A stretch of 11,188 nucleotides of DNA from a virus (IMGVR_UViG_3300018019_000494); one strand, 5' to 3'. Shown: positions 1-11,188, counted from the first letter of the stretch. The notes: a model not told the origin generated them from the sequence alone. Numbers and translations: made by a program.

Positions 1-76
1 GGACACCAAGAAACGGTTCTACCAGCCTCACCATTATCAACCCCCCCAGACTGGACACCCTCCAACCTATGCGTCG

Positions 77-286
77 ATGTCGTCTTCCGGTTCGCTCTCG
101 GTGGGTTACTCATCGTCTTCTTCTGCGGAAGAGCTTCGGCGCGAGTTATCAACACCTGACGTGAGGCCGTTGACCGAAGAAGAGGTTGCGTTCTTCGCCA
201 GATACGAGAAGCAGATGAGAGAATTTGTTGTCAACGGCGGGGAGCGTAGGTCAGCTTTTTGGAGGCCATTCAATGGCAAAGGCTAA
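77..286 (+). CDS. Hypothetical Ser-rich small protein. The frame is open from the left window edge, so this could be the 3' part of a longer gene starting upstream of the window.
   Basis: ORF in track. The same frame has no stop between position 2 and 286. GC3 is moderate. There is no strong RBS before ATG 77. Confidence 0.35.
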   Translation: MSSSGSLSVGYSSSSSAEELRRELSTPDVRPLTEEEVAFFARYEKQMREFVVNGGERRSAFWRPFNGKG

Positions 287-289
287 TAT

Positions 290-928
290 GTGGAGGAACT
301 CGTGAGAGAAATAGCGAGCAAGAACCTTAAGCCTAGCGTGAACTACCGCATGGTCCACAGCCGCAAGGGCGAAGCCGTGGTCAAGTGCGTGGAGCCTGAC
401 ACTGACGGCGGGACGTTCGTCGTCATCGAGGGCGAACTCCGGGGCATCAACGATTTCTATGGTCCGGGCGACAAGTTCACTACCATCAATAACCTTGCCA
501 AGTTCTACCGGGAGAAGCCCACCACCGCGAAGAACGTCAAGCAGCGCACGACCAAGCCTGTCCCGATGGGGGAGTTCGGCAAGGACCACTGGAGCACATT
601 CGCCTACCTTGAGACCTGTTGCGTAGACAACGGCGGCGTGGTTGATATTCAACGCATGCGCTGTGCCGCTAACCGTCATCCGCAGTTCGCCCATGCTGGT
701 AGCGATAACGGCATTAGGTATCCGACTCGCACCAAGAGGGGTGAAATCAAGAACCACGACGATTGGGATTGCCTCGACGACTGCGAACTGGTAGGATTGA
801 TCGAGAACACGGGCACGGCGCTTCATCGCGTCTACAAGATTACGGAACTGGGATTCGCGGTCGCCGGGCAGCTTCGTCAACATAAGGCGAACGGTGAAAA
901 TTTCGACAACTTCGTACCGAAGATTTGA
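290..928 (+). CDS. Hypothetical protein, 212 aa, GTG start
   Basis: Long ORF with strong GC3 bias. It starts 4 nt after the stop of the upstream ORF. No recognisable domain. Confidence 0.7.
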   Translation: MEELVREIASKNLKPSVNYRMVHSRKGEAVVKCVEPDTDGGTFVVIEGELRGINDFYGPGDKFTTINNLAKFYREKPTTAKNVKQRTTKPVPMGEFGKDHWSTFAYLETCCVDNGGVVDIQRMRCAANRHPQFAHAGSDNGIRYPTRTKRGEIKNHDDWDCLDDCELVGLIENTGTALHRVYKITELGFAVAGQLRQHKANGENFDNFVPKI

Positions 929-948
929 CTAGCATCTAGGGGAAGAAC

Positions 949-1173
949 ATGGCCAAGGTCGATCTGCCCAACTTACGGAATGCCTGCCAGAGGATGATCG
1001 AGCTTATCGACGAGATCAGCAACCCCGCAACCGACTCCTCGGGCGCACGCAACTTCGGCTTCGCTATGATCGCCGACGAGATCAGGTTCGAGATCGACGG
1101 CGGCGAAAGCTGCGTCCCATCCGTGCGGGAGCGGGCGGCTTTGGTCAAAAGATACGAGAATGAAGACGCGTAA
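949..1173 (+). CDS. Hypothetical small acidic protein, 74 aa
   Basis: ATG preceded by RBS-like GGGGAAG at 938-944. High GC3. Confidence 0.65.
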   Translation: MAKVDLPNLRNACQRMIELIDEISNPATDSSGARNFGFAMIADEIRFEIDGGESCVPSVRERAALVKRYENEDA

Positions 1174-1291
1174 GACGACGAAGCGTAAGAAGAAGCAACC
1201 GAAGCGGTCAACGCCGCTCCCGTCGTACAAGATCGACTGGAGCTACTTGCATCCGCTGATCCGAGACAAACGAGGATTACTGCCGGTATGA
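1160..1291 (+). CDS. Unlisted small, highly basic protein, 43 aa (MKTRKTTKRKKKQPKRSTPLPSYKIDWSYLHPLIRDKRGLLPV)
   Basis: Found by manual translation. GC3 is about 80%. It fills an otherwise 115-nt gap in a tightly packed region. Its TGA forms an ATGA overlap with the 1288 start. Confidence 0.4.
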   Translation: MKTRKTTKRKKKQPKRSTPLPSYKIDWSYLHPLIRDKRGLLPV

Positions 1292-1542
1292 CACCGAGCG
1301 ATCTCGAAATTCTGGTCCACTGCCACGTCAGCCCCGACCCGCACCCACGGCTGCACGCGCCCGCCGTGAAGGACGCGATCCGGCAGTTCCTCGCGGACGG
1401 GATCATCAAGAGGGTTAGTGTAGACATCTATGGGTCAACCGAGCGCGGGGAGATGTGGCTGGAGATGATACTGGACACCCCGATGCCCGTCTACCAACTG
1501 GTGGACCCGCGCAAGCTAGGCCCGACCCTGGAGGAATCATGA
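1288..1542 (+). CDS. Hypothetical protein, 84 aa
   Basis: ORF with high GC3 and an ATGA overlap with the upstream small ORF. Confidence 0.7.
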   Translation: MTPSDLEILVHCHVSPDPHPRLHAPAVKDAIRQFLADGIIKRVSVDIYGSTERGEMWLEMILDTPMPVYQLVDPRKLGPTLEES

Positions 1543-1793
1543 CAACGAAGCGAACGAGGAAGAGCAAGCGGTTCTGGGAGCACGAATACGCCGTCACGAA
1601 GGTTGACCCGGCGTCGGACCGGACCGAGGTGGCGATAGTCGTCGGCAGCCTTGACGCCACGGCGAAGCAGGAAGAGTTCGAGGACGCGGGCTTCTTCGCC
1701 GTCGTCTTCAACAACACGACCAAGGAAGAGGAGTACCGGACGCCTGGCTGCGAGCTTCGGGCGCGGACGGAGAGCGATGAAACCCAAGCCTAG
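1539..1793 (+). CDS. Hypothetical protein, 84 aa, basic N-terminus
   Basis: ATG 1539 overlaps the upstream stop (ATGA). A strong GGAGGA RBS lies at 1530-1535. High GC3. Confidence 0.7.
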   Translation: MTTKRTRKSKRFWEHEYAVTKVDPASDRTEVAIVVGSLDATAKQEEFEDAGFFAVVFNNTTKEEEYRTPGCELRARTESDETQA

Positions 1794-2151
1794 CCAGATG
1801 AACCGCAGGCGCTTCATCGCCATGCTGGGCATGGCACCGGCGGTGGTCGCGGCGGCCAGGCTTCTGCCCAAGCTAGATGCGGTTGCCAGTGTGTCCACGC
1901 CGGTCACCGCATACGCCGACTCCATCGGGCAAGCACTTGAGTTCGCCCCAAGCCACGGGTACAAACCTGGGGACGTTGTCTGCATCACCGGAACAAGCGG
2001 GGGATGGGACGGCGTCTACCGGATGACCGACGACAGGGTCTTCCGACCGAGACCCTGCTCCGCGCCGTGTACCTGCGCGTGGACAACAACATCGTCAGCG
2101 ATATCGTTCGCGCCGAGACGAAAGACCTCGTCAACGTGGACATCAAGCTGA
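1777..2151 (+). CDS. N-terminal segment with a twin-arginine-like signal and TM helix (MKPKPSQMNRRRFIAMLGMAPAVVAAARLL...). Its coding signal ends near 2040. It is probably the N-terminus of the downstream SPFH protein, joined through a -1 frame change.
   Basis: Frame-1 GC3 is near 100% up to about 2040 and then collapses, at which point the -1 frame (the 2004 ORF) takes over. GGAGAG lies 4 nt upstream of ATG 1777. An alternative ATG is at 1798. Confidence 0.5.
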   Translation: MKPKPSQMNRRRFIAMLGMAPAVVAAARLLPKLDAVASVSTPVTAYADSIGQALEFAPSHGYKPGDVVCITGTSGGWDGVYRMTDDRVFRPRPCSAPCTCAWTTTSSAISFAPRRKTSSTWTSS

Positions 2152-2996
2152 GCTACCGCGTCAACTTCCTGCGTGAGCACAAGGATAGGTGGTTCTCCGT
2201 CGAGAACTACGTCAAGTTCCTGTGCGACCACATGCGCAGCCGCCTGAAGGGCGCGGTGAAGAAGCTCGGCGTGAAGGAGTTCATCGAGAACTCCACCGCC
2301 ATCGTCCGCGACACCATCCTCGGTGCCAAAGTCGGGGGCGAGGTACGCCACTTCACATTCGCTGAGAACGGCATGGACGTCTACGACGTCGAAGTGCTGG
2401 GCGCGACCATCAGCGATGACAAGATCGCCGGGCTGCTCCGCAACGCGCAGCAGACCGCCGTCACCACCGCGATCAACCTGTCGGTCGAGGAAGCCTCCCT
2501 CGAAGCCAAGAAGCGCAGCATTGAGATTCAGTCTCAAGTCGCCAAGCTTGACCACACCCTTGCGACAAAGAAACTGGAACTCGCTTCCACGCTGGAGAAG
2601 GCCGAAGCCGAACAGACCATGGCACGCTTGCAGGAAGAGATCGCGCAGACGGTCGCGAAGATGACCGCCCGCGTGGACGAGCAAGCGCAACTCGACACCA
2701 TCGCCGCCGCGACGCTCACGCGCCGCCAGGGTGAGGAGAACTACACGATCTCGCTGGAACAGCAGCGTGTGGACTTCTTCGCGAAGCGCATGGAAGCCGT
2801 CACCCCGGACCTCATCGCCGCGATGAACACCCTCGGCAACAACGAGTTCGCGACGAAGCTGGCCACCGCAATCGCCCCGCTTGCCCTGCACGAACAGAGC
2901 GGCATCGGAACCACCCTGGAGAAGGTTTTCGCCAACACCCCGTTCGCGACGATCCTTACCAACCTGCAATCCAAGCCCGCGAAGGCCGGTCAATAA
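2004..2996 (+). CDS. SPFH/band-7 (stomatin/HflK/C/flotillin-like) domain protein with a C-terminal coiled-coil Ala/Glu/Gln-rich region
   Basis: The segment ...IVSDIVRAETKDLVNVDIKLSYRV... followed by a long EA/K-rich helix resembles the SPFH core plus coiled coil. GC3 is strong from about 2040 onward. The true N-terminus is probably the 1777 ORF. Confidence 0.65.
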   Translation: MGRRLPDDRRQGLPTETLLRAVYLRVDNNIVSDIVRAETKDLVNVDIKLSYRVNFLREHKDRWFSVENYVKFLCDHMRSRLKGAVKKLGVKEFIENSTAIVRDTILGAKVGGEVRHFTFAENGMDVYDVEVLGATISDDKIAGLLRNAQQTAVTTAINLSVEEASLEAKKRSIEIQSQVAKLDHTLATKKLELASTLEKAEAEQTMARLQEEIAQTVAKMTARVDEQAQLDTIAAATLTRRQGEENYTISLEQQRVDFFAKRMEAVTPDLIAAMNTLGNNEFATKLATAIAPLALHEQSGIGTTLEKVFANTPFATILTNLQSKPAKAGQ

Positions 2997-3014
2997 GCCT
3001 TCGGCAGTAAAAAC

Positions 3015-3048
3015 CAGAGGGGGAGCCACCCGGCTCCCCCTTTCTTTT
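3015..3048 (+). terminator. Rho-independent terminator
   Basis: AGAGGGGGAGCC-ACCC-GGCTCCCCCT stem-loop followed by TTTCTTTT, directly after the SPFH gene stop. Confidence 0.8.
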
Positions 3049-3060
3049 AGGGGATGTTAT

Positions 3061-3231
3061 ATGAATGTCAACTGTCGCGGATGCGGCAAGGAAATTCCAG
3101 AAGATAAAGCATTGTATCGCGGTTCACCCGCTAAGAACCACGACGAGTTGGCCGGGCGCGATTGGAAGGACTTCGCAAAGTGCGAAGACTGTGACTACCA
3201 AGATTATAGCAACACCTATGGCGGGATGTGA
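3061..3231 (+). CDS. Small zinc-ribbon protein, 56 aa (CRGCGKE...CEDCDY)
   Basis: ATG with a GGGGA RBS 6 nt upstream. Two CxxC pairs. Confidence 0.65.
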   Translation: MNVNCRGCGKEIPEDKALYRGSPAKNHDELAGRDWKDFAKCEDCDYQDYSNTYGGM

Positions 3232-3452
3232 TCTGGCTGGCCTACGTCGGTTTCGTGCTCGTCTTCCTGTCCTACGCGAGGATTCCCAAGAGTCCCCGCT
3301 CCGGGTGGGCATACGGGGCGTTGGGGAACGTCCTTTACACTATTGCATTCCTGCCCTACCGTAGGGTAGAGTTGCTTTTAGCGCCCGTCGCATTCGCGGC
3401 GCTGTCCGCGTGGAACCTATGGCGAGAACTAAGGAAGACATCCTCGAACTGA
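3228..3452 (+). CDS. Small membrane protein with two predicted TM helices, GTG start
   Basis: GTGA overlap with the upstream stop. Hydrophobic stretches LAYVGFVLVFLSY and LLLAPVAFAALSAW. Confidence 0.55.
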   Translation: MIWLAYVGFVLVFLSYARIPKSPRSGWAYGALGNVLYTIAFLPYRRVELLLAPVAFAALSAWNLWRELRKTSSN

Positions 3453-4261
3453 TCCGGCACACGCCGTTCATGTGGCCCGACTCCGTCATCCACGTATTTA
3501 TATCCGGCTCCGCGATGCACGGCGCGACCGGAAGCCAGCCGACCGACACCGACATCTCCGGGGTGTACATTCAGCCCGTGGAGACGGTGCTGGGCATCCC
3601 GCAGAAGAATGAGGATGGCAAATGGTTCGATCCGGACACCCAGGTGTGGAGCAGCGCTGGCGACCACAGCAAGAACACCGCCGACGACATCGACGTGAAC
3701 CTGTACTCGCTCCGCAAGTGGGCGGGCATGGCGGCGAGTGGGAACACCACCGCCTTGGAGTTTCTGTTTGTGAAGAACATGGTCTGTGAGACTCCTTTGG
3801 AATATACCGTTTGGGATAAGTACATCCTGCCGAACACGCAGCACTTTATCTCCAAGCGTGCGGGCTTCCACTTCGCCGCCTTCGCGGAGGCGATGAAGCT
3901 GCGGCTGAGCGGCGGGAGCACGGGGAGGCACGGGCAAAGACCGGAGCTTGAGACCGAGTTCGGGTACGACGTCAAGGGGGCCATGCACATGCTGCGCATG
4001 CTGGGCGAGGGCATCGAGCTTATGACCACCGGCGCGATCACCCTGCCTTGCCCGGAAGCGGCGTTCCTGAAGGCCGTTCGGAACGGCGAGCTTTCATGGG
4101 CGCAGGTCGATGGGATCGCCGACGCGAGGTTCAGCATCCTTGGCGAGTGCCGCGAGAAGTCTTTCCTGCCTGACGAGATCGACCGGGCGGCGATCAGCAG
4201 GATCATCACCGACGCGCAGATCGAATTCTGGGGCTTGGTAGGCAGCAGGAGGGCGATATGA
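3410..4261 (+). CDS. Nucleotidyltransferase-fold protein of the Pol-beta superfamily. Possibly RlaP-like, that is, of the RNA-ligase-associated type.
   Basis: hG[GS]x(9-13)DxD motif in VFISGSAMHGATGSQPTDTDISGVYI, a later acidic IDVNL strand, then a helical C-terminal domain. The start is GTG 3410; the alternative ATG 3419 is equally plausible. Confidence 0.65.
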   Translation: MEPMARTKEDILELIRHTPFMWPDSVIHVFISGSAMHGATGSQPTDTDISGVYIQPVETVLGIPQKNEDGKWFDPDTQVWSSAGDHSKNTADDIDVNLYSLRKWAGMAASGNTTALEFLFVKNMVCETPLEYTVWDKYILPNTQHFISKRAGFHFAAFAEAMKLRLSGGSTGRHGQRPELETEFGYDVKGAMHMLRMLGEGIELMTTGAITLPCPEAAFLKAVRNGELSWAQVDGIADARFSILGECREKSFLPDEIDRAAISRIITDAQIEFWGLVGSRRAI

Positions 4262-4446
4262 AAGCACAACACATCAGCGGGGACATTTGGGAGTACAAGG
4301 GCTACAAAATCAGGCTTTCTTACTCGCCGGGGTACGAATCGACTGTTTCCGTAGAGGTTGCGGGCGTCCCTCTGGAAGATGGCCTCAGAGATACTTTCTA
4401 TGCCGTCAAAGCGGCAGAAGAGTACATAGACTCCAGGACTGAATGA
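4258..4446 (+). CDS. Hypothetical protein, 62 aa
   Basis: ATGA overlap. AGGAGGG RBS at 4245-4251. Confidence 0.65.
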   Translation: MKAQHISGDIWEYKGYKIRLSYSPGYESTVSVEVAGVPLEDGLRDTFYAVKAAEEYIDSRTE

Positions 4447-4721
4447 GCAACCCGTGTGAGCTATGCGGGCGGACAGCCCTTCCGCTGACGAAGCATCATT
4501 TGATCCCCAAGGCACGGCACAACAAGCGGGTGAGGCGCGACCTCGGCGCGGACAGGAATAAGGTCGCCATGATGTGTCGGCCTTGCCAAAACGCGATCCA
4601 CGCCTTCTTCACGGAGAAGCAGCTTGAGCGCGAGTATTACACCATCGACCTCTTGAAGAAAAACGAGCAGGTGATACACTGGATAGAGTGGGTGAAAAAG
4701 AGACCCACGTGGGGGCTGTGA
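4443..4721 (+). CDS. Small HNH-family endonuclease-like protein, 92 aa
   Basis: CxxC...HH(L)IP...CxxC...H arrangement (CELCG..TKHHLIPKA..CRPCQNAIH). ATGA overlap. Confidence 0.65.
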   Translation: MSNPCELCGRTALPLTKHHLIPKARHNKRVRRDLGADRNKVAMMCRPCQNAIHAFFTEKQLEREYYTIDLLKKNEQVIHWIEWVKKRPTWGL

Positions 4722-4885
4722 TGGCAGACCGGGCTTTGTTCATCGTCTGTTTGGCGGCGCTGGTTGTTGGGGGCGGCTGGTGGCTTACCAAGCTCGACTT
4801 CCCGGACGACATCGAGTGCCGCAGGATGTCCCGCGAGCACGGGGTGTGCAGGGATTGCAGGTGCCCGTGCCACGGGCGGGCATGA
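4721..4885 (+). CDS. Small membrane-anchored Cys-rich protein, 54 aa
   Basis: ATG overlaps the upstream TGA. TM helix FIVCLAALVVGGGWWL followed by CRRMSREHGVCRDCRCPCH. Confidence 0.5.
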   Translation: MADRALFIVCLAALVVGGGWWLTKLDFPDDIECRRMSREHGVCRDCRCPCHGRA

Positions 4886-5073
4886 TGACTTACTACACCC
4901 ACCGGCGCGGGCTTCAGTTCTTTCTGGAGGTCACGGGCATCGCCTTCGAGGGGCACTACCCCTTCAAGATCAGCAACGTGGGCGAACTAGCAATCGAGAG
5001 CATGGCATCGGCGGGCGGAGAAAGCTGGGTCTGGGACAAGCCGAGAGAGATTCCGAGGAGCATGGTCAATTGA
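4882..5073 (+). CDS. Hypothetical protein, 63 aa
   Basis: ATGATG start overlapping the upstream stop (ATGA). GC3 is high from this point. The longer listed ORF 4780.. has poor upstream coding character. Confidence 0.55.
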   Translation: MMTYYTHRRGLQFFLEVTGIAFEGHYPFKISNVGELAIESMASAGGESWVWDKPREIPRSMVN

Positions 5074-5210
5074 AAACCAAAGCGGAAAAGGTCTACGCTC
5101 TCTTCGAGAAGCACACGGGTTTCTGCGAGTTCTACCGCAAGGGTCATGGGGCATGCACCTGCGGGGCGTGCAAACCGTGCAGTGACAAGAACTGCGGGGA
5201 GCACCGATGA
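5070..5210 (+). CDS. Small Cys-rich (zinc-binding-like) protein, 46 aa, TTG start
   Basis: GAGGAG RBS at 5055-5060, about 9 nt before TTG 5070. CEFYRKGHGACTCGACKPCSDKNCGEH. The TGA forms an ATGA overlap with the next gene. Confidence 0.5.
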   Translation: MKTKAEKVYALFEKHTGFCEFYRKGHGACTCGACKPCSDKNCGEHR

Positions 5211-5434
5211 GCGACTGGAAGATCGGAGACCGCGTCCGCGTCGCCGAGGACTACACCTCGCCGTATCCCGAGACCGTCTGCCTGGACGGCACCATCACGG
5301 GCATCGAGACGCTGGAATTTGAGGGCGACCAACATTCGGATTCCGCGTTTGCACGGAGCATCGACATACCCGTGATCACGCTAGACGACGGAACGGTGCT
5401 GAGGGGTTACGAGTGTTGGTGGAGGCTACTGTGA
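5207..5434 (+). CDS. Hypothetical protein, 75 aa
   Basis: ATGA overlap. High GC3. Confidence 0.65.
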   Translation: MSDWKIGDRVRVAEDYTSPYPETVCLDGTITGIETLEFEGDQHSDSAFARSIDIPVITLDDGTVLRGYECWWRLL

Positions 5435-5514
5435 CGTTGGCTTCGATAGTGGTGGCGTGCTGCTGTGGCTGGATCGCTCGGGGATTCTTCGAGCGGTGGA
5501 TAGACAAGCGTTAA
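5431..5514 (+). CDS. Possible 27-aa TM micropeptide (VTLASIVVACCCGWIARGFFERWIDKR), GTG start
   Basis: GTGA overlap with the upstream stop. It fills the gap before the strong RBS of the 5534 gene. It is too short to score reliably. Confidence 0.3.
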   Translation: MTLASIVVACCCGWIARGFFERWIDKR

Positions 5515-5533
5515 GGAAAAGGGGACTAAAATC

Positions 5534-6733
5534 ATGTCACATTTTGCGGTTTTGGTGGTGGGCGACGACGTCGAAGGTCAATTGCAACGTTATCACGAAT
5601 TTGAATGTACTGGGCAGGACGACCAGTACGTCAAGGAGATCGACGAGACCGAGGAGGCCCGCAAAACATTCGAGAAGAACACCACCAGGCGGTACAGAGA
5701 CCCCGAGGGCAACCTCCATTCGCCCTACACCCCGGAGGGCAGCCACAGCCCGCTGTTCTGGCGCGAGCTTACGCCCGAGGAAGAGACAAAATATGGCAAG
5801 CGCATCAGCAGCAGCGAGGGGGACGATGGGCTGCGGCTGGAATCCACCGACTGGCACGACGGCAGGGGCTACCGCACGAAGGCGTTCGCCTGGCCCTCCG
5901 ATGGCTGGTCTGAGGTCGAGGTTCCGACGAGTACCGTCCAGACGTTCGCCGAGTTCTGCGCGGACTACTACGGTCACGAGGCCATCCCGTTCGGGACGGA
6001 ACCCGACCTCGCGGAGAAGCACAAGTACGGCTACACCATCGTTGACGAGCAAGACAACGTTATCAGGACAATCAATCGCACCAACCCGGACCGCAAGTGG
6101 GACGGGTACACCGTGGGCGGGCGCTGGAACGGCTTCTTCAAGCTGAAGCCGCTCGCCGTGGGCGTCCTCGGCGAACCCGGCCTACAGGTCATGAACAGCA
6201 ACTACGAGCCGGTCGCCGAAAACCGCGCCGACGTCATCATGAAGGGCGATATCGACGTCGAGGGCATGCGCGACGAGGCCGGGGAGAAAGCTGCCGAGCG
6301 CTACGACATATTCGAGCGAGTCACCGCTGGCCTGCCGCAGGCGCTCTCCTGGAAGCAGGTGCAGGAGAACAACCGCACGGGGAAGATGGACGAGGAGTAC
6401 CCCGGCGAGCCGGAGGTGGACTGGAAGACGGCGAGGGAGGATTACAACTCCCAGCCCATGGTGAAGGCCCTCCGCGCTGACAAGGAGACGATCTGGTACG
6501 AGCTTGACGAGTTCCTCTACACCCGCGAGGAGTACATCCAGCAGCACCGCGACCGCGCCCTGGTGCTCTTCGCCGTCGTGAAGGACGGTGTGTGGTACGA
6601 GCGCGGCAGGATGGGCTGGTGGGGCATGGTCTCCGACGAGAAGGACCGCGACGAGTGGAACAGGCAATTCTCGGCGCTGATCGACGGCCTGCCGGACAAC
6701 ACATTGCTGAGCGTCGTGGATTGTCACATATGA
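5534..6733 (+). CDS. Hypothetical protein, 399 aa, ORFan-like; function unknown
   Basis: Strong RBS AAGGAAAAGGGGA. Long ORF with consistent GC3. Trp-rich motifs (GGRWNGFF, GRMGWWGMVSDE). I could not recognise a domain. Confidence 0.8.
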   Translation: MSHFAVLVVGDDVEGQLQRYHEFECTGQDDQYVKEIDETEEARKTFEKNTTRRYRDPEGNLHSPYTPEGSHSPLFWRELTPEEETKYGKRISSSEGDDGLRLESTDWHDGRGYRTKAFAWPSDGWSEVEVPTSTVQTFAEFCADYYGHEAIPFGTEPDLAEKHKYGYTIVDEQDNVIRTINRTNPDRKWDGYTVGGRWNGFFKLKPLAVGVLGEPGLQVMNSNYEPVAENRADVIMKGDIDVEGMRDEAGEKAAERYDIFERVTAGLPQALSWKQVQENNRTGKMDEEYPGEPEVDWKTAREDYNSQPMVKALRADKETIWYELDEFLYTREEYIQQHRDRALVLFAVVKDGVWYERGRMGWWGMVSDEKDRDEWNRQFSALIDGLPDNTLLSVVDCHI

Positions 6734-7101
6734 AGATTTGCCAAGAGCATTGGAACCGGCTCAGGACAGCAATCGAGGAGCGCGGCCTCTCGCACTTCGT
6801 CGCGAAGGACGGCAAAGTCGCCGCCAACAATATGGTCGCCGAACTTCAAGGCGCGAACACCAAGGAGAACTACGACCCCCTAATGGCCGCCAACTTCGCG
6901 ATCTGGGGCAACGCCCTAGAGTGCTGGGGCATCGAGATGATGACGTCGGATGCGTGTCCGCTGTGCGCCCTGGACAAGCACGCGGCGGAATGCACCGAGG
7001 AAAGCTGCAACAAGCAGAGCGGGTCGGACTGGATCAGGTTCGCGGCCGACGGCCAGTTTAAGGTGGCGCAGGAGTTGGGGCTTCTGGGGGAGCCGAATTG
7101 A
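6730..7101 (+). CDS. Hypothetical protein, 123 aa
   Basis: ATGA overlap at 6730. High GC3. Confidence 0.7.
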   Translation: MKICQEHWNRLRTAIEERGLSHFVAKDGKVAANNMVAELQGANTKENYDPLMAANFAIWGNALECWGIEMMTSDACPLCALDKHAAECTEESCNKQSGSDWIRFAADGQFKVAQELGLLGEPN

Positions 7102-7191
7102 TTCGGCTAAGAAAGATTTGGCGCTGGATTTCCCAGAAGCTTTGGGGAATAAGATGCCGCAAGCCCAGCGGAACCATCTCGATGATCCGAG

Positions 7192-7407
7192 ATGTCCACG
7201 ACGGCATCCATCCGAGGTTTCGATGAAATGGTGAAAAACGTGGATGCCACAGCGGTTTGCGGGATCGAGGGCGATAAGGTCGTCCTCCGCCTCGAATCGG
7301 AGACCCCGTCCGCCGACAACGCCCGCCTCAACTTCACGGCGGAATCGGCCGAGAGGCTGGCCGGCGACTTGCTCATGTGGGCGGACAGGCTGAGGAAAAT
7401 CCGGTGA
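7192..7407 (+). CDS. Hypothetical protein, 71 aa
   Basis: ORF with high GC3. The RBS is weak. An alternative in-frame ATG is at 7228. Confidence 0.55.
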   Translation: MSTTASIRGFDEMVKNVDATAVCGIEGDKVVLRLESETPSADNARLNFTAESAERLAGDLLMWADRLRKIR

Positions 7408-7559
7408 CGGCTGAGGAGAGGAAGCAGGTCCGCGACGAGACCATCGACGAGCTTTGCGGCTGGCTGGCGTCCTGCATCGAGCACGTGGATCACGGCAGCG
7501 AGGTCTACAAGGCGTGCAACGCCATGGTCGCCGCGATGAGAGGAAAAAAGACAGTATGA
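7404..7559 (+). CDS. Hypothetical protein, 51 aa, GTG start
   Basis: GTGA overlap with the upstream stop. The alternative ATG 7377 would overlap the upstream gene by 31 nt. Confidence 0.45.
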   Translation: MTAEERKQVRDETIDELCGWLASCIEHVDHGSEVYKACNAMVAAMRGKKTV

Positions 7560-7669
7560 CACTCCTACTGACATTGCTTTTTGGCTTGGGCTTTTACATT
7601 CTTCTTGACTGGTTTGCCGGATGCAACGCGATCCCCAATTTCCTAAAGAGACTTTGGAAAAAGTCCTAA
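7556..7669 (+). CDS. Small TM protein, 37 aa (MTLLLTLLFGLGFYILLDWFAGC...)
   Basis: ATGA overlap at 7556. A single strong hydrophobic helix. Confidence 0.45.
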   Translation: MTLLLTLLFGLGFYILLDWFAGCNAIPNFLKRLWKKS

Positions 7670-7678
7670 GGAGAAGGC

Positions 7679-7879
7679 ATGGCAGAAAAGGAAAAGGTGT
7701 ACCGGGAGCACATAGTGTCCGACCAGGGGAACGGCGTGGCGGTCTGCTCCAAGTGCGGGGCCGATCTGTCGCCCACGGGTCCGCTCGGCCGGGGTCCCGC
7801 GCCCTACCCGTGCCCCGGCTGCGGGGCGGAGTACGAGGAGGGCGGGATGTGGGTGCAGGGCGGGGGTTCCGACTTCTAG
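7679..7879 (+). CDS. Zinc-ribbon protein, 66 aa (CSKCG...CPGCG)
   Basis: AAGGAG RBS at 7667-7672, 6 nt before ATG. Two CxxC pairs. Confidence 0.7.
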   Translation: MAEKEKVYREHIVSDQGNGVAVCSKCGADLSPTGPLGRGPAPYPCPGCGAEYEEGGMWVQGGGSDF

Positions 7880-7880
7880 C

Positions 7881-8120
7881 ATGAGAAAATTCCTGTGCGC
7901 CATCGGGTTCCACGATCCTCAGATCGTCCGCAAGGTCTTTTGGGGAAACGTGCATCACGCCGAACTGAGATGCGCCTGTGGTAAGCGATTCGAGGGTTTC
8001 GTGGCTGGCTCCTTCGGGCGCGTGTACCCGGCAAAGACGCCGTCGGACTTCTGGGTCGCATACGACGCGGGGGCGTTGCTCGCGATCCCTCCATGCTGCG
8101 TCTCAAATTCCCAAAAATAG
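7881..8120 (+). CDS. Hypothetical Cys/His-containing protein, 79 aa
   Basis: ATG 1 nt after the upstream stop. High GC3. Confidence 0.65.
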   Translation: MRKFLCAIGFHDPQIVRKVFWGNVHHAELRCACGKRFEGFVAGSFGRVYPAKTPSDFWVAYDAGALLAIPPCCVSNSQK

Positions 8121-8123
8121 TTC

Positions 8124-8152
8124 TTGACAGTTTTCCAGTTTTTCGGTATCTT
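8124..8152 (+). promoter_or_regulatory. Sigma70-type promoter: -35 TTGACA (8124-8129), 17-bp spacer, -10 TATCTT (8147-8152)
   Basis: AT-rich intergenic island in a GC-rich genome. Perfect -35 hexamer with canonical spacing. Predicted TSS near 8159. Confidence 0.5.
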
Positions 8153-8167
8153 ATGTAGGTGAGAACA

Positions 8168-8269
8168 ATGACCTCAAGGAAACCCAACACGATTGCCCGA
8201 AAGGGCGCGAGCCAGTGGCGGAATCGCCATTCCGGCGCGGGTCTGTTCTCCGATGGGTGGGACGGCTAG
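8168..8269 (+). CDS. Possible 33-aa leader peptide or small protein (MTSRKPNTIARKGASQWRNRHSGAGLFSDGWDG) inside the structured leader
   Basis: AGGTGAG SD 6 nt upstream of ATG 8168. GC3 is about 70%. It overlaps the predicted antiterminator 5' strand. Confidence 0.3.
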   Translation: MTSRKPNTIARKGASQWRNRHSGAGLFSDGWDG

Positions 8270-8294
8270 GCAAGAGTCCCAAATCGAGTTCCAG

Positions 8295-8332
8295 ACCCGC
8301 CAGATGAGAATCTCGGCGGGTTTTTTGCTTTT
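8295..8332 (+). terminator. Intrinsic terminator-like hairpin with a U-tract; possibly a conditional attenuator
   Basis: ACCCGCC/GGCGGGT stem with an inner GAT/ATC stem and a GAGA loop, followed by TTTTTTGCTTTT. It ends 1 nt before tRNA-Trp. Confidence 0.55.
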
Positions 8333-8408
8333 AGGGGAGTAAGATAACCGGCAGTCGGTCGGTCTCCAAAACCGTACAGTGGCGGTTCAAATCCGTCCTC
8401 CCCTGCCA
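8333..8408 (+). tRNA. tRNA-Trp(CCA), 76 nt, CCA encoded
   Basis: Manual cloverleaf: acceptor AGGGGAG/CTCCCCT, U8, A14, G18G19, U33, anticodon CCA, T-loop TTCAAAT, G53-C61. The D-stem first pair and the 27-43 pair are weak (A/G, U/U). Confidence 0.7.
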
Positions 8409-8442
8409 AAGTTTTTGAAAGGAAAGTAGTTACAAGTTCTAT

Positions 8443-8519
8443 GGTGGCGGTCGTCTAGCGGCTAAGACACCTGACTGTGGATCAGGATAGCATGGGTCCG
8501 AATCCCATTCGCCACCCCA
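8443..8519 (+). tRNA. tRNA-His(GUG) with encoded G-1 and C73
   Basis: Acceptor GTGGCGG/TCGCCAC, G-1 at 8443 pairing with C73, perfect D and anticodon stems, loop CTGTGGA. The T-loop TCCGAAT has C at position 55. Confidence 0.8.
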
Positions 8520-8538
8520 ATTTTGAGGAGAGACGTTG

Positions 8539-8614
8539 GTCCGTGTAGCTCAGAAGGAAGAGCACCACGCTCCGAACGTGGAGGTCGCGAGTCCGAGTCT
8601 CGCCATGGACACCA
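8539..8614 (+). tRNA. tRNA-Arg(CCG)
   Basis: Acceptor GTCCGTG/CATGGAC, D-stem GCTC/GAGC, anticodon loop CTCCGAA, T-arm GCGAG-TCCGAGT-CTCGC (C55). Confidence 0.8.
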
Positions 8615-8618
8615 GTTT

Positions 8619-8825
8619 ATGATGACGTTCACGATCAGCGACGAGAAGGCGGCGCAGTACAAGGCGTGGAGCGAAGAGCACCGGAAGACGTGCGGGGCGC
8701 GACCGGATATGAGCATGGCCCTGTACAGCTTCGTGTTCACGCCGAACGGTCTTGGGGACGGCATATCGGTCAAATGCCCCTGCGGCGAGAGGGTATTCCT
8801 CGACGCCGGGGACGAGGATTTATAG
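8619..8825 (+). CDS. Small Cys-containing protein, 68 aa (MMTFTISDEKAAQYKAWSEEHRKTCG...CPCGERVF), located between tRNA genes
   Basis: Very high GC3. It starts 5 nt after tRNA-Arg(CCG) and its stop abuts the next tRNA (8826). The listed longer ORF 8523.. runs through two tRNAs and is rejected. Confidence 0.6.
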   Translation: MMTFTISDEKAAQYKAWSEEHRKTCGARPDMSMALYSFVFTPNGLGDGISVKCPCGERVFLDAGDEDL

Positions 8826-8903
8826 GCGCGTGTAGCTCAGCCGGAATAGAGCGCTATTCTGCGAAGATAGAGGTCGGCGGTCCGAGTCCGCCCATGCGCA
8901 CCA
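8826..8903 (+). tRNA. tRNA-Arg(GCG)
   Basis: Acceptor GCGCGTG/CATGCGC, D-arm GCTC-AGCCGGAATA-GAGC, anticodon loop CTGCGAA (stem with one G-U pair), T-arm GGCGG-TCCGAGT-CCGCC (C55). Confidence 0.75.
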
Positions 8904-8911
8904 AGTTTTTT

Positions 8912-8989
8912 GCCGGGCTAGCCATTGGACATGGCGGCACGCCTTCGAAACGTGCACGTTTGCGGGTTCGAATCCCGCGCCCGGTTCCA
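8912..8989 (+). tRNA. tRNA-Arg(UCG)-like with a non-canonical anticodon arm (9-nt loop CCTTCGAAA, or a 7-nt loop closed by a C/A mismatch)
   Basis: Acceptor GCCGGGC/GCCCGGT (G1-U72), T-arm GCGGG-TTCGAAT-CCCGC, anticodon stem GCACG/CGTGC. The anticodon assignment TCG is inferred from U33 placement. Followed by a T8 run. Confidence 0.55.
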
Positions 8990-8999
8990 GGTTTTTTTT

Positions 9000-9077
9000 G
9001 CGCCCGTAGCTCAGCGGAATAAGAGCATTGGTCTACGAAACCAAGGGTCGCGTGTTCGAATCACGCCGGGCGCACCA
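9000..9077 (+). tRNA. tRNA-Arg(ACG)
   Basis: Acceptor GCGCCCG/CGGGCGC, D-arm GCTC-AGCGGAATAA-GAGC, anticodon loop CTACGAA with a perfect stem, T-arm GCGTG-TTCGAAT-CACGC. Confidence 0.85.
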
Positions 9078-9081
9078 ACAT

Positions 9082-9168
9082 TGAGGTGTAGGGGAATCGG
9101 TAGACCCACCTGGCTGTTACCCAGGAGCCGAAAGGCACTTGCAGGTTCGAAGCCTGCCGCCTCAGCCA
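9082..9168 (+). tRNA. Atypical 87-nt class-II-like tRNA: Leu-like D-arm (GGG-GAATCGGTAGA-CCC), long variable arm, but anticodon GUU (Asn), U1-A72 and G73
   Basis: Acceptor TGAGGTG/CGCCTCA, perfect anticodon stem CCTGG/CCAGG with loop CTGTTAC, variable arm AGCCGAAAGGCACTT, T-arm GCAGG-TTCGAAG-CCTGC, CCA encoded. Confidence 0.55.
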
Positions 9169-9186
9169 GTTTAGAGGGAGGATTCA

Positions 9187-9518
<332 letters not shown>

Positions 9519-9523
9519 AGTTT

Positions 9524-9598
9524 GGGTCTGTAATTCAGCGGCTAGAAGCCCTCGCTCTTAACGAGGTAACGAGAGTTCGAGTCTCTCCAGACCCACCA
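9524..9598 (+). tRNA. tRNA-Lys(CUU), copy 1
   Basis: Acceptor GGGTCTG/CAGACCC, A73, anticodon stem CCTCG/CGAGG, loop CTCTTAA, T-arm GAGAG-TTCGAGT-CTCTC. The D-stem has one A/G mismatch. Confidence 0.75.
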
Positions 9599-9618
9599 GG
9601 CATCTGATAGAATAGGGC

Positions 9619-10020
9619 ATGAACAAGAAAGCTCAAGGCACTCGGTCAGTCGGTGCGGTGATGAGCCACTTCATCAAAGCAGGCAAAATCGTCTTGATGC
9701 CGATTGGAGACAATGAGCGATACGATTTCGTCATTGATGAGGATGGGCGGTTTCGGCGTATTCAAGTCAAAACGGGCAAGGTCAAGAACGGAGCGATAGA
9801 GTTTAGTACCGCCAGCACTAATCTTGAAAACGGTAAGTGGGTGAGACACGGTTATAGGGGACAGATTGACGATTTCGCAGTTTACTGCCCTAAACTCGAC
9901 AAGGTTTACCTTGTGCCTATAGACGAAGCAGGTGGTCAGACACACTGTTCTTTGCGGCTTGAGCCAGCGAAGAACGGTCAACAAAAGGGCATTAGGCTGG
10001 CTGAGCAGTACGAGGTTTAG
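9619..10020 (+). CDS. PD-(D/E)xK-fold nuclease-like protein (Hjc/YraN-UPF0102-like), 133 aa, with foreign composition
   Basis: GC is about 50% and GC3 about 55%, versus about 85% GC3 in the flanking genes. The pattern G..G...FIKAGKIVL...DFVID-x7-RIQVKTGK resembles the core of YraN/Hjc-like nucleases. Its stop codon shares its last base with tRNA-Lys copy 2. Confidence 0.6.
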   Translation: MNKKAQGTRSVGAVMSHFIKAGKIVLMPIGDNERYDFVIDEDGRFRRIQVKTGKVKNGAIEFSTASTNLENGKWVRHGYRGQIDDFAVYCPKLDKVYLVPIDEAGGQTHCSLRLEPAKNGQQKGIRLAEQYEV

Positions 10021-10095
10021 GGCTACTAACTCAACTGGTAGAGTAGCAGACTCTTAATCTGCGAGTTCGGGGTTCGAGTCCCCGGTGGCCCACCA
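10020..10095 (+). tRNA. tRNA-Lys(CUU), copy 2, with a different sequence from copy 1
   Basis: Acceptor GGGCTAC/GTGGCCC, D-arm ACTC-AACTGGTA-GAGT, anticodon stem GCAGA/TCTGC, loop CTCTTAA, T-arm CGGGG-TTCGAGT-CCCCG, A73. Confidence 0.8.
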
Positions 10096-10134
10096 AGTTT
10101 CCGGGTATTAGAACTCTTAGGATAGGAGGTCAGC

Positions 10135-10680
10135 ATGCCCGACGTACTGGTTCTCGACATGAACTACCGCCCTGTCGGCTTCAAGTCCTGGCAGGACGCG
10201 ATCACGAACGTGTGGAAGGAGCGGGCCATCGTCGTCAAGGAGGACGAGTCCGGCCTGAAGCTCCACTCCCCGTCGTTCGAGGTCGGGATGCCGAGGGTGA
10301 TCCGCGTGCGCAACGCCTGGGTGAAGCGGCGCAAGACATCCGTGCCGTTCTCGCGGCGCAACCTGTACGTCCGCGACGGCGGCGAGTGCCAGTACTGCGG
10401 TAGGCACCTCAAGCTGGAGGAGTACACCCTCGATCACGTGATCCCGCGTTCGCAGGGCGGCGTGAGTTCGTGGGTCAACATGGTCCTCGCCTGCATGCGC
10501 TGCAACAAGCACAAGGCGGGCCGGACGCCGCAGCAGGCAGGGATGCCCCTCCTGCACAAGCCCGTCGTCCCGAAGGTGGACGACCCGAAGTACAACTTCA
10601 AGCTCCACATCCGCAAGATGCGGCCCGAGTGGAAAGAATGGGAGAATTTCCTTTACTGGAATATCGAGCTTGACGAGTAG
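10135..10680 (+). CDS. HNH endonuclease, 181 aa
   Basis: TAGGAGGT RBS. Motifs CQYCG...LDHVIPRSQGG...N...CMRCNKHK (the HNH zinc-finger core). Confidence 0.8.
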   Translation: MPDVLVLDMNYRPVGFKSWQDAITNVWKERAIVVKEDESGLKLHSPSFEVGMPRVIRVRNAWVKRRKTSVPFSRRNLYVRDGGECQYCGRHLKLEEYTLDHVIPRSQGGVSSWVNMVLACMRCNKHKAGRTPQQAGMPLLHKPVVPKVDDPKYNFKLHIRKMRPEWKEWENFLYWNIELDE

Positions 10681-10694
10681 ATCAAGCGACAAGC

Positions 10695-10718
10695 CCCGGA
10701 GGAGCAACCCTCCTCCGG
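10695..10718 (+). terminator. Strong GC hairpin (CCCGGAGGAG-CAAC-CTCCTCCGGG) without a good U-tract; a possible terminator or processing/stability element
   Basis: Perfect 10-bp stem, 14 nt after the HNH stop and 9 nt before tRNA-Arg(CCU). Confidence 0.35.
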
Positions 10719-10727
10719 GCGAAATTT

Positions 10728-10805
10728 GGCCCCGTAGCTCAGCGGAATAAGAGCGACGCACTCCTAACGCGTAGGTCACTGGTCCGAATCCAGTCGGGGT
10801 CACCA
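10728..10805 (+). tRNA. tRNA-Arg(CCU)
   Basis: Acceptor GGCCCCG/CGGGGTC, D-arm identical to that of Arg(ACG), anticodon loop CTCCTAA with an A31/C39 mismatch, T-arm ACTGG-TCCGAAT-CCAGT (C55). Confidence 0.7.
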
Positions 10806-10818
10806 ATTTTTGAGTTGT

Positions 10819-10892
10819 TGCCTCCTCGTCCAACGGTAGGACACGGGTCTCTGGAACCCGGTATCGCGGTTCGAATCCTCGGGAGGCAGCCA
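10819..10892 (+). tRNA. tRNA-Gln(CUG), U1-A72, G73
   Basis: Acceptor TGCCTCC/GGAGGCA, D-arm GTCC-AACGGTA-GGAC, anticodon stem CGGGT/ACCCG, loop CTCTGGA, T-loop TTCGAAT (the T-stem has one C/U mismatch). Confidence 0.75.
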
Positions 10893-10899
10893 AATTTGC

Positions 10900-10928
10900 T
10901 GGACAATGCCGCGAAAATGCGGTATAAT
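10900..10928 (+). promoter_or_regulatory. Sigma70-type promoter: -35 TGGACA, 17-bp spacer, perfect -10 TATAAT (10923-10928); predicted TSS at or next to the ATG (leaderless)
   Basis: AT-rich island directly after tRNA-Gln. Consensus hexamers with optimal spacing. The ATG at 10936 lies 7-8 nt after the -10 element. Confidence 0.6.
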
Positions 10929-10935
10929 GATCAGA

Positions 10936-11115
10936 ATGAACTCGACGCTGAAGACGATCCTGAAGGCCGCGGCGATAGCGGTCGTGCCGGGGCTGGGCGC
11001 TTTCTGGCTGTTAAGCAGGCTCGCGAAAGAGCACGAGCGGCAGGAGTTCAGGGAGTACATCCGCAAGACCTACGGGAAGGGAAGCAAGTACGAGAACGAA
11101 AATGTTGAGCCTTAG
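10936..11115 (+). CDS. Small membrane protein, 59 aa (MNSTLKTILKAAAIAVVPGLGAFWLLSRL...), probably translated from a leaderless mRNA
   Basis: There is no SD and no room for a 5' UTR downstream of the promoter. TM helix. The upstream part of the listed ORF 10906.. would lie in the promoter. Confidence 0.55.
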   Translation: MNSTLKTILKAAAIAVVPGLGAFWLLSRLAKEHERQEFREYIRKTYGKGSKYENENVEP

Positions 11116-11188
11116 CATGAACGCGGACACGCTCTTCAACGTCCTCAGCGGCGTTGTGATGCTTCTCTCCGTCTACGCCTTCTACCAA
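11107..11188 (+). CDS. 5' end of a membrane protein gene (MNADTLFNVLSGVVMLLSVYAFYQ...), truncated by the window edge
   Basis: ATG 11107 overlaps the end of the upstream gene by 9 nt. Hydrophobic N-terminus. The frame is open to the window end. Confidence 0.45.

Follow-up and report, generated by a model that had tools for sequence, protein, structure and literature searches.

The tRNA array and its genomic setting

The window, by which we mean the whole stretch of 11,188 nucleotides analyzed here (IMGVR_UViG_3300018019_000494), carries on its plus strand an array of 12 tRNA genes (8333..10892) comprising Trp, His, Arg-CCG, Arg-GCG, Arg-UCG, Arg-ACG, two Asn, two Lys-CUU, Arg-CCU and Gln-CUG. 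Five of these genes are arginine isoacceptors, located at 8539-9077 (CCG, GCG, UCG and ACG) and at 10728-10805 (CCU). The tRNA genes are interspersed with a 68-amino-acid ORF with conserved cysteines (KTC...CPCG), lying between Arg-CCG and Arg-GCG (8619-8825), and with the genes of a PD-(D/E)XK endonuclease (PDDEXK_5, 9619-10020) and an HNH endonuclease (10135-10680), both of which look like homing endonucleases that colonised the array. The product of the 68-amino-acid ORF had no match in Pfam or PHROG; it is 60-78% identical in related phages, and a distant version is found in an AT-rich phage (L032). Other genes of the window encode an MVP-shoulder/vault-like protein (2004-2996), which in the relatives has 811-871 amino acids with Vault_3 and MVP_shoulder domains, an RlaP nucleotidyltransferase of the RNA-repair type upstream of the array (3410-4261), and a 399-amino-acid protein of PHROG family phrog_10079 (5534-6733). 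Additionally, a consensus scan alone placed a sigma-70-like promoter match upstream of the array (8124..8152, plus strand; TTGACA, 17-nt spacer, TATCTT), with 10 of 12 positions matching; such a match is not in itself a sign of function.

The 399-amino-acid protein served as the marker for related phages. It has many metagenomic relatives at 55-69% identity by BLASTP, and largely the same tRNA array was found on six of the contigs encoding it (L033, L035, L039, L040, L043 and L044), with gene order largely conserved apart from local differences. One of these loci, L043, comes from a contig of 447,784 bp, and a seventh related array lies on L030, a short contig reached via the 68-amino-acid ORF. 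Among the phages with orthologous arrays the marker is 57-65% identical by BLASTP and 58-67% identical in a MAFFT alignment. Four other loci (L036, L037, L041 and L042) stop before the Arg tRNAs, and L038 carries no array. The four CGN anticodons (ACG, GCG, UCG and CCG) together with CCU are present in every family array that is fully covered.

The arrays of the relatives also contain, or have beside them, short genes resembling aminoacyl-tRNA synthetases, which include HisRS-like genes, an ArgRS DALR-like gene (L035) and a class Ib-like gene (L044). Moreover, a gene for an IF3 C-terminal domain is present in L035 and L040, and genes for an amino-acid permease, a PARP and an R2K ATP-grasp protein are found nearby. 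The synthetase-like and IF3 stretches map to L035 12397-15138, L033 4656-5117, L039 12930-13463, L040 12010-13668, L043 12443-13060, and L044 12905-13372 and 19588-20277, and all these genes together with the array form a translation island.

The tRNA-Arg(UCG) gene and its alternative folds

The gene at 8912..8989 (plus strand) was called as tRNA-Arg(UCG) by ARAGORN with a score of 111; it has four orthologs of the same build, its structure is recovered by RNAalifold, and it combines a non-canonical cloverleaf with an encoded CCA end. From the 5' end, a 7-bp acceptor stem (GCCGGGC with GCCCGGT) is joined by a linker of two bases, U8-A9, to a D arm at 8921..8935 (GCCAT-TGGAC-ATGGC; plus strand), which both RNAfold and RNAalifold fold as a stem of 5 bp and a loop of 5 nt; G18, G19 and A20 are retained in this loop. 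The usual place of A14 is taken by a U, and this base (T in the gene) can pair with A21, giving the D stem its five base pairs. A single purine connector, G8936, precedes the anticodon arm at 8937..8955 (plus strand), in which a helix of six positions (GCACGC/ACGTGC) encloses the loop CTTCGAA with the anticodon TCG at 8945-8947. The variable loop ACGTTT follows (8956..8961, plus strand), and its first base, A, can act as position 44 opposite G8936. The 3' part consists of a 5-bp T stem (GCGGG/CCCGC) with the T loop TTCGAAT, the second acceptor strand, U73 and the encoded CCA.

The anticodon arm can be read in two ways. Five Watson-Crick pairs, GCACG/CGTGC, surround the nucleotides CCTTCGAAA, and the minimum-energy fold computed by RNAfold has exactly these 5 bp and a 9-nt loop, in agreement with the original prediction of a 5-bp stem enclosing nine nucleotides. 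On the same bases ARAGORN places a 7-nt loop, CTTCGAA, closed by a C8942·A8950 mismatch, together with a 2-nt spacer and a 7-nt variable region. The numbering that follows from the ARAGORN call may be taken as an alternative description, in which the stem would have five pairs, 26:44 would be a Watson-Crick pair, one extra base would precede position 26 and the variable region would be 7 nt long. When a U was restored in silico at the closing pair, the arm gained 1.7 kcal/mol and folded as a 6-bp stem with a 7-nt loop. An intron in the gene was considered and rejected, there being no insert.

Recurrence of the gene in independent assemblies

The same phage was assembled independently from at least nine samples, with at least 99.97% identity in every assembly compared. 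Four of the other assemblies extend to the Arg part of the array (L005, L006, L009 and L031). The first three are at least 99.97% identical to the window and carry a tRNA-Arg(UCG) gene that is identical base for base, and the same holds for tRNA-Arg(CCU) in L005 and L006; L031 has the same array, with matching gene lengths, spacing and anticodons. The assemblies with the identical Arg(UCG) gene derive from JGI, ENA and Logan samples.

A base inserted in this genome only, which the original prediction had named as a possible sign of sequencing or assembly error, is not what these data contain. Such an error as the origin of the irregularities is rejected, with a probability close to nil, because independent assemblies are identical: three have the same gene and a fourth the same array, and L039, which is another phage, shares the C·A.

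Orthologous genes, covariation and the origin of the unpaired position

The non-canonical form of tRNA-Arg(UCG) is found in the window, L033, L039, L043 and L044, and an ordinary gene with a 5-bp anticodon stem in L035, L040 and L030. The structure alignment comprised the five distinct non-canonical orthologs, window included, which are related to each other. Without guidance, RNAalifold predicted from it the cloverleaf proposed here, whose acceptor, D, anticodon and T stems have 7, 5, 6 and 5 bp, respectively; the D loop is TGGAC (5 nt), the anticodon loop has 7 nt and the variable loop 6-7 nt. The anticodon loop CUUCGAA, G18-G19, A20, the T loop, the CCA end and the first base of the variable loop (A) are invariant in the five genes, the D arm is conserved and the connector at position 26 is G or A, whereas the stems vary.

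The variation within the stems is compensated. Standard pairs occupy 98.3% of the 115 pair cells, six pairs have changed on both sides, and compensatory double changes occur in all four helices. In the D stem, for example, pair 11:24 is U-A in L043 but C-G in the other four orthologs, and the additional pair on top of the anticodon helix reads G-C in the window, L039 and L043, A-U in L033 and U-A in L044. Of the five covariation measures, four had values that none of 500 shuffles attained, and the fifth was attained by two of the 500; pairing fell to 36-50% when the 3' partners were shifted by one to three columns. The tRNA-Arg(UCG) gene is thus real, conserved and under selection for its cloverleaf.

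The alignment also accounts for the nine unpaired nucleotides of the thermodynamic fold. The pair that closes the loop is U-A in L033, L043 and L044, which have six Watson-Crick pairs in the anticodon stem, and C·A in the window and L039, where the sixth position is mismatched; these two cells are the only unpaired ones among the 115. Because the orthologs pair this position as U-A within a covarying helix of six positions, the "9-nt loop" is explained by a base-pair position that has undergone a U-to-C transition. The nine bases are as originally described, but the idea of a designed expanded loop does not hold, since the flanking C and A stand at a position that is base-paired in orthologs. 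On the evidence of the alignment, the true anomaly is the extra anticodon-stem pair, accompanied by an altered architecture of the D arm and the variable loop. In the phage of the window the loop-closing pair would have changed from U-A to C·A at a cost of about 1.7 kcal/mol in the nearest-neighbour model, after which the arm would resemble one of 5 bp with a 9-nt loop.

The same observations bear on the proposal, also made in the original prediction, that the 9-nt loop supports +1 decoding. A role of the enlarged loop in +1 frameshifting or quadruplet decoding is very improbable: although the thermodynamic fold has a 9-nt loop in the window phage and in L039, the pair is closed and the loop has the normal seven nucleotides in three orthologs, the seven central loop bases, including U33 and A37, are canonical and invariant in all five, and no gene requiring a frameshift turned up in the stretches that were inspected. 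In characterised +1 suppressors such as SufB2 and sufD, the loop has 8 nt and its additional base stands next to the anticodon. The Arg(UCG) arm resembles them in the enlarged anticodon loop of its minimum-energy fold but differs in that the enlargement is symmetric, results from the closing position being unpaired and does not exist in three of the five orthologs. Identity with such suppressors was rejected, since there is no extra nucleotide beside the anticodon making an 8-nt loop and the loop core CUUCGAA is canonical.

Decay of the gene was also considered, that is, that tRNA-Arg(UCG) is a degenerating or non-functional copy whose irregularities are accumulated damage. The gene lies below the Rfam gathering score for tRNA, decodes the rarest arginine codon and belongs to a phage with other departures, such as C55 in 4 of 12 tRNAs vs. 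1 of 89 in the relatives. We nevertheless regard decay as improbable, given the compensatory double changes in all four helices, the invariance of the tertiary-contact bases, the loop and the CCA end among phages with about 40% divergence in a neighbouring protein, and the fact that only 2 of 115 pair cells are unpaired. The possibility of a pseudogene, raised in the original prediction, is at odds with an ortholog alignment that records compensatory evolution rather than decay.

In a neighbour-joining tree of the marker protein the non-canonical form is distributed over several branches, including the deepest (L044), and the canonical form is found in the tight pair L035/L040; from this distribution, the odd build of Arg(UCG) is probably ancestral for the phage family. 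The window and L039 are not neighbours in the marker tree, yet by tRNA sequence they are the closest pair, with six differences. The C·A state may accordingly go back either to one origin followed by exchange of the tRNA gene or to two origins, between which a one-gene tree and a 78-nt tRNA gene cannot decide. A covariance model (R1) built from the five non-canonical orthologs scored these at 98-107 bits vs. 52-54 bits for the canonical orthologs, and its search of 292 kb of collected loci yielded no further member.

Departure from background genes and from tRNA models

The background for these comparisons was a set of 84 distinct phage tRNA-Arg(UCG) genes from IMG/VR, in which the 31:39 pair is Watson-Crick in 80 and G·U in 4, with no mismatch. 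The spacing between D stem and anticodon loop is 7 nt in the Arg(UCG) gene of the window and 6, 5 or 4 nt in the background; between anticodon loop and T stem it is 12 nt as compared to 10 or 9 nt. The first base of the D loop, a T in our gene, is A in 80 of the 84 and never T. A Watson-Crick 26:44 pair occurs in 27 of the 84 genes. A contiguous 6-bp helix is therefore not rare by itself, and what is distinctive is the helix together with connectors retained on both sides, namely the purine at 26 and the A at 44.

The departure is also reflected in covariance-model scores. At its gathering score of 29 bits, Rfam RF00005 recovers 11 of the 12 tRNAs of the array, Arg(UCG) being the exception; the top match of this gene within the tRNA clan is tRNA-Sec at 28.5 bits, whereas that family has a gathering score of 47. 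RF00005 must score lower than 28.5 bits on this gene because tRNA-Sec is the best clan match. Several features of canonical class I tRNAs are present and do not vary among the five orthologs (an acceptor stem of 7 bp, a T stem of 5 bp, TTCGAAT, G18-G19, U33 and a purine at 37), and others are lacking, that is, an adequate RF00005 score, a 5-bp anticodon stem with standard spacings and A14. We infer that tRNA-Arg(UCG) may work like a class I elongator tRNA, yet structurally and by its Rfam score it would be no standard member of that class. Since the standard covariance model misses genes of this type, phage tRNA inventories may be undercounted.

No close relatives of the window were found in INPHARED or IMG/VR. 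A megablast search of INPHARED with positions 8200-11188 returned only two short tRNA-Asn matches, and none with positions 1-8200. Using Arg(UCG) as the query, blastn against the same database gave only partial matches to the T arm, the best of which, tRNA-Arg(ACG) of Caulobacter phage CcrSC, has an ordinary arm. Pattern scans of IMG/VR for the exact arm, the D arm, and the D arm plus loop produced no member of the family, the D-arm matches not being tRNAs. A scan of genome contigs with the D-arm-plus-loop pattern had no match, and the anticodon-arm pattern gave 120 matches there, all in protein-coding DNA and none of them a tRNA; neither pattern yielded a hint of the host. A scan of metagenome contigs with the alignment of the 68-amino-acid ORF recovered only another copy of the window phage and an unrelated AT-rich phage. 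Besides, a limited literature search yielded no previous description of a phage-encoded tRNA for a sense codon that is built in this way.

Comparison with known tRNAs

Anticodon stems of 6 bp have been described in tRNA-Sec and Sec-like tRNAs, in tRNA-Pyl and in mitochondrial tRNA-Ser(UCN) (PMC7609411). [quoted passage not shown] It differs from tRNA-Sec in its acceptor and T stems (7/5 as opposed to 8/5 or 9/4), in its D stem (5 vs. 6 bp), and in having a 6-nt variable loop and the anticodon UCG where tRNA-Sec has a long variable arm and UCA. Identity as a tRNA-Sec was rejected, as stems, anticodon and variable loop do not correspond and the score of 28.5 bits compares with a required 47.

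The likeness to tRNA-Pyl and mammalian mitochondrial tRNA-Ser(UCN) lies in the 6-bp anticodon stem and small D loop; in addition, G18, G19 and the T-Psi-C motif are retained in both the mitochondrial tRNA and Arg(UCG). Both tRNA-Pyl and the mitochondrial tRNA function with the ordinary elongation machinery (PMC7609411). Their connector is a single nucleotide and their variable loop has 3 nt, whereas Arg(UCG) has two bases (T8 and A9) and a variable loop of 6-7 nt, is phage-encoded and is predicted to read a sense arginine codon. A tRNA-Pyl identity was rejected on the same grounds, as the connector of Arg(UCG) is not a single base and its variable loop exceeds 3 nt. The presence of an extra helical layer without the shortened connectors of tRNA-Pyl and mitochondrial tRNA-Ser(UCN) means that the anticodon might be misplaced.

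Predicted decoding by tRNA-Arg(UCG)

Bacterial ArgRS recognises C35, G36 or U36, and A20 in the D loop as identity elements. The Arg(UCG) gene possesses them, with the anticodon UCG and an A directly after G18-G19 in TGGAC, and they are invariant in the orthologs. Because these elements are present and conserved, the tRNA is most likely charged with arginine and expected to read CGA and CGG in frame. In our preferred reading, which we hold with reasonable but not high confidence, the gene at 8912-8989 encodes a working though structurally non-canonical elongator tRNA-Arg(UCG) of a huge-phage family so far known only from metagenomes. Such a tRNA would be charged by ArgRS through A20, C35 and G36 and would decode CGA, and probably CGG, in frame, as part of a full phage set of CGN and AGG decoders that may allow arginine codons to be translated without host Arg tRNAs. 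The C·A pair, like the A·C pair of Arg(CCU) described below, would be tolerated, perhaps as a protonated A+·C wobble, and would not be the functional point of the gene.

The composition of the set and its match to codon use were also considered. The GCG anticodon is uncommon in bacteria, and a set of ACG, GCG, UCG and CCG would make CGN decoding independent of the host conversion of A34 to inosine. In a sample of 2,799 codons the arginine codons were CGC (80), AGG (39), CGG (27), CGT (20), AGA (9) and CGA (7), so that AGG makes up 21% of arginine codons and CGA, with 7 of 182, is the rarest, which indicates a low demand for Arg(UCG). Codon supply thus accounts well for Arg-CCU and hardly for Arg-UCG.

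If the tRNA works as proposed, it would represent a naturally occurring reader of a sense codon in which an additional anticodon-stem pair is tolerated without the compensating features of tRNA-Pyl or mitochondrial tRNA-Ser(UCN). It would then bear on how far the tRNA core can vary and might offer a scaffold for orthogonal engineering.

Weakened 31:39 pairs, C55 and possible evasion of tRNA-targeting enzymes

Two more arginine tRNAs of the window have an irregular 31:39 pair. In tRNA-Arg(CCU) (10728..10805, plus strand; ARAGORN), the anticodon arm at 10756-10772 (ACGCA CTCCTAA CGCGT) is closed by A31 (10760) and C39 (10768), and the T loop TCCGAAT carries C55. The A/C pair at 31-39 had been pointed out in the original prediction; it is a mismatch in the ARAGORN structure and is marked as non-standard in the Rfam alignment. 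This anticodon arm is identical in the window and L033, while the T stems of the two genes differ at four of five pairs, all compensated; in L039, L043, L044, L040 and L035 the pair is U31-A39. In tRNA-Arg(GCG) (8826..8903, plus strand), which also has C55, the closing pair is a wobble of U31 (8858) and G39 (8866).

A survey of 101 tRNAs in the eight related arrays found Watson-Crick pairs at 31:39 in 96, G·U in 1 and a mismatch in 4. The single G·U is that of Arg(GCG) in the window, replaced by C-G in all orthologs, and the four mismatches are the C·A of Arg-UCG (window and L039) and the A·C of Arg-CCU (window and L033). The phage of the window therefore has a non-Watson-Crick 31:39 pair in three of its five Arg tRNAs. 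The A31·C39 of Arg-CCU and the U31·G39 of Arg-GCG appear, from these alignments, to be lineage-specific weakenings of the same pair, similar to the C·A of Arg-UCG.

The T loops of this phage are also irregular. The base U55 is near-universal in tRNA T loops, and C55, in a T loop starting TCCGA, was found in four of the 12 tRNAs of the window, all on the plus strand (His, 8444-8519; Arg-CCG, 8539-8614; Arg-GCG, 8826-8903; Arg-CCU, 10728-10805), and in 1 of 89 tRNAs of the other seven loci surveyed.

In an unrelated AT-rich phage, a tRNA-Arg(UCG) of normal stem length also has C31·A39 (ATTGC CTTCGAA ACAAT), the search pattern having required the mismatch. This gene is located at L017 367-437 (minus strand), L020 120-190 and L023 258-328 (minus strand), and it follows that C31·A39 recurs outside the family of the window phage.

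The concentration of weakened pairs in arginine tRNAs raises the possibility that the unusual build and the 31:39 changes were selected for escape from a host enzyme that targets tRNA, in which case the full set of resistant Arg tRNAs would be a counter-defence. Candidates for such an enzyme would be a nuclease acting on the anticodon arm, whether colicin D-like or of another kind, and a modifying toxin. A precedent is given by the AriB nuclease of the PARIS system, which cuts tRNA-Lys between positions 40 and 41 and whose cleavage is abolished by the single change U39-to-A, and tRNAs of phage T5 neutralise PARIS (PMC12409363). Since AriB is blocked by one change at 39, a change at 31 or 39 could plausibly matter here, and positions 31 and 39 do differ relative to the sister phages. 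In support of evasion, the 31:39 mismatches of the family survey are confined to Arg tRNAs, affecting three of five in the window phage if the G·U is counted, as compared to no mismatch in the 84 background genes. The gene context fits a conflict over tRNAs as well, with five Arg isoacceptors conserved throughout the family, the RlaP nucleotidyltransferase of RNA-repair type upstream of the array, and the synthetase and IF3 gene fragments of the relatives.

Several observations weigh against it. The closing pair is an intact U-A in three of the five orthologs, which means that the family does not require the mismatch; the loop sequence itself is that of an ordinary Arg loop, and the pattern could equally be relaxed constraint in one lineage. 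Moreover, neither extra pairs nor mismatches are involved in the published precedents, which are base substitutions. [quoted passage not shown] The Arg(UCG) gene resembles the reported phage tRNAs, including those of T5, in that these are isoacceptors of nuclease-targeted species whose changes affect the anticodon arm or its immediate neighbourhood, position 39 among them. Theirs, however, are substitutions within a standard cloverleaf, with resistance measured in the case of T5, and the changes of Arg(UCG) are a mismatch and an extra pair. On balance, we consider selection for nuclease evasion a rather unlikely, though credible, explanation. Its broader version is quite doubtful: the shape-shifted tRNA-Arg(UCG), the weakened 31:39 pairs and C55 would together provide a structural escape from host enzymes that cut or recognise Arg tRNAs, with use by ArgRS and the ribosome kept. 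If the irregular arms do block a nuclease, phage counter-defence would extend from point substitutions to tRNA architecture, and the complete Arg set would point to an arginine-tRNA-targeting defence in the uncultured host.

Other irregular tRNAs in the family

Unusual architecture within the family extends beyond the arginine tRNAs discussed above. An extra variable arm is normally confined to Leu, Ser and Tyr tRNAs. The tRNA-Asn(GUU) of the window (9082-9168) is 87 nt long and has such an arm (GCC-GAAA-GGC), together with C38. Long-arm tRNAs in L044 comprise Trp (91 nt), Gln (89 nt), Arg-ACG (86 nt), Asn (86 nt) and Arg-CCU (88 nt), and in L035 Lys-UUU (88 nt). Additionally, model R1 matched tRNA-like sequences at 23-36 bits just upstream of Lys-UUU genes, without ARAGORN calls, at L044 17896-17976 and 17984-18077, L035 18289-18369, L033 8861-8943 and L039 16622-16702; the equivalent place in the window phage lies just past the window. 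From their position and scores, these sequences may be further irregular tRNA genes.
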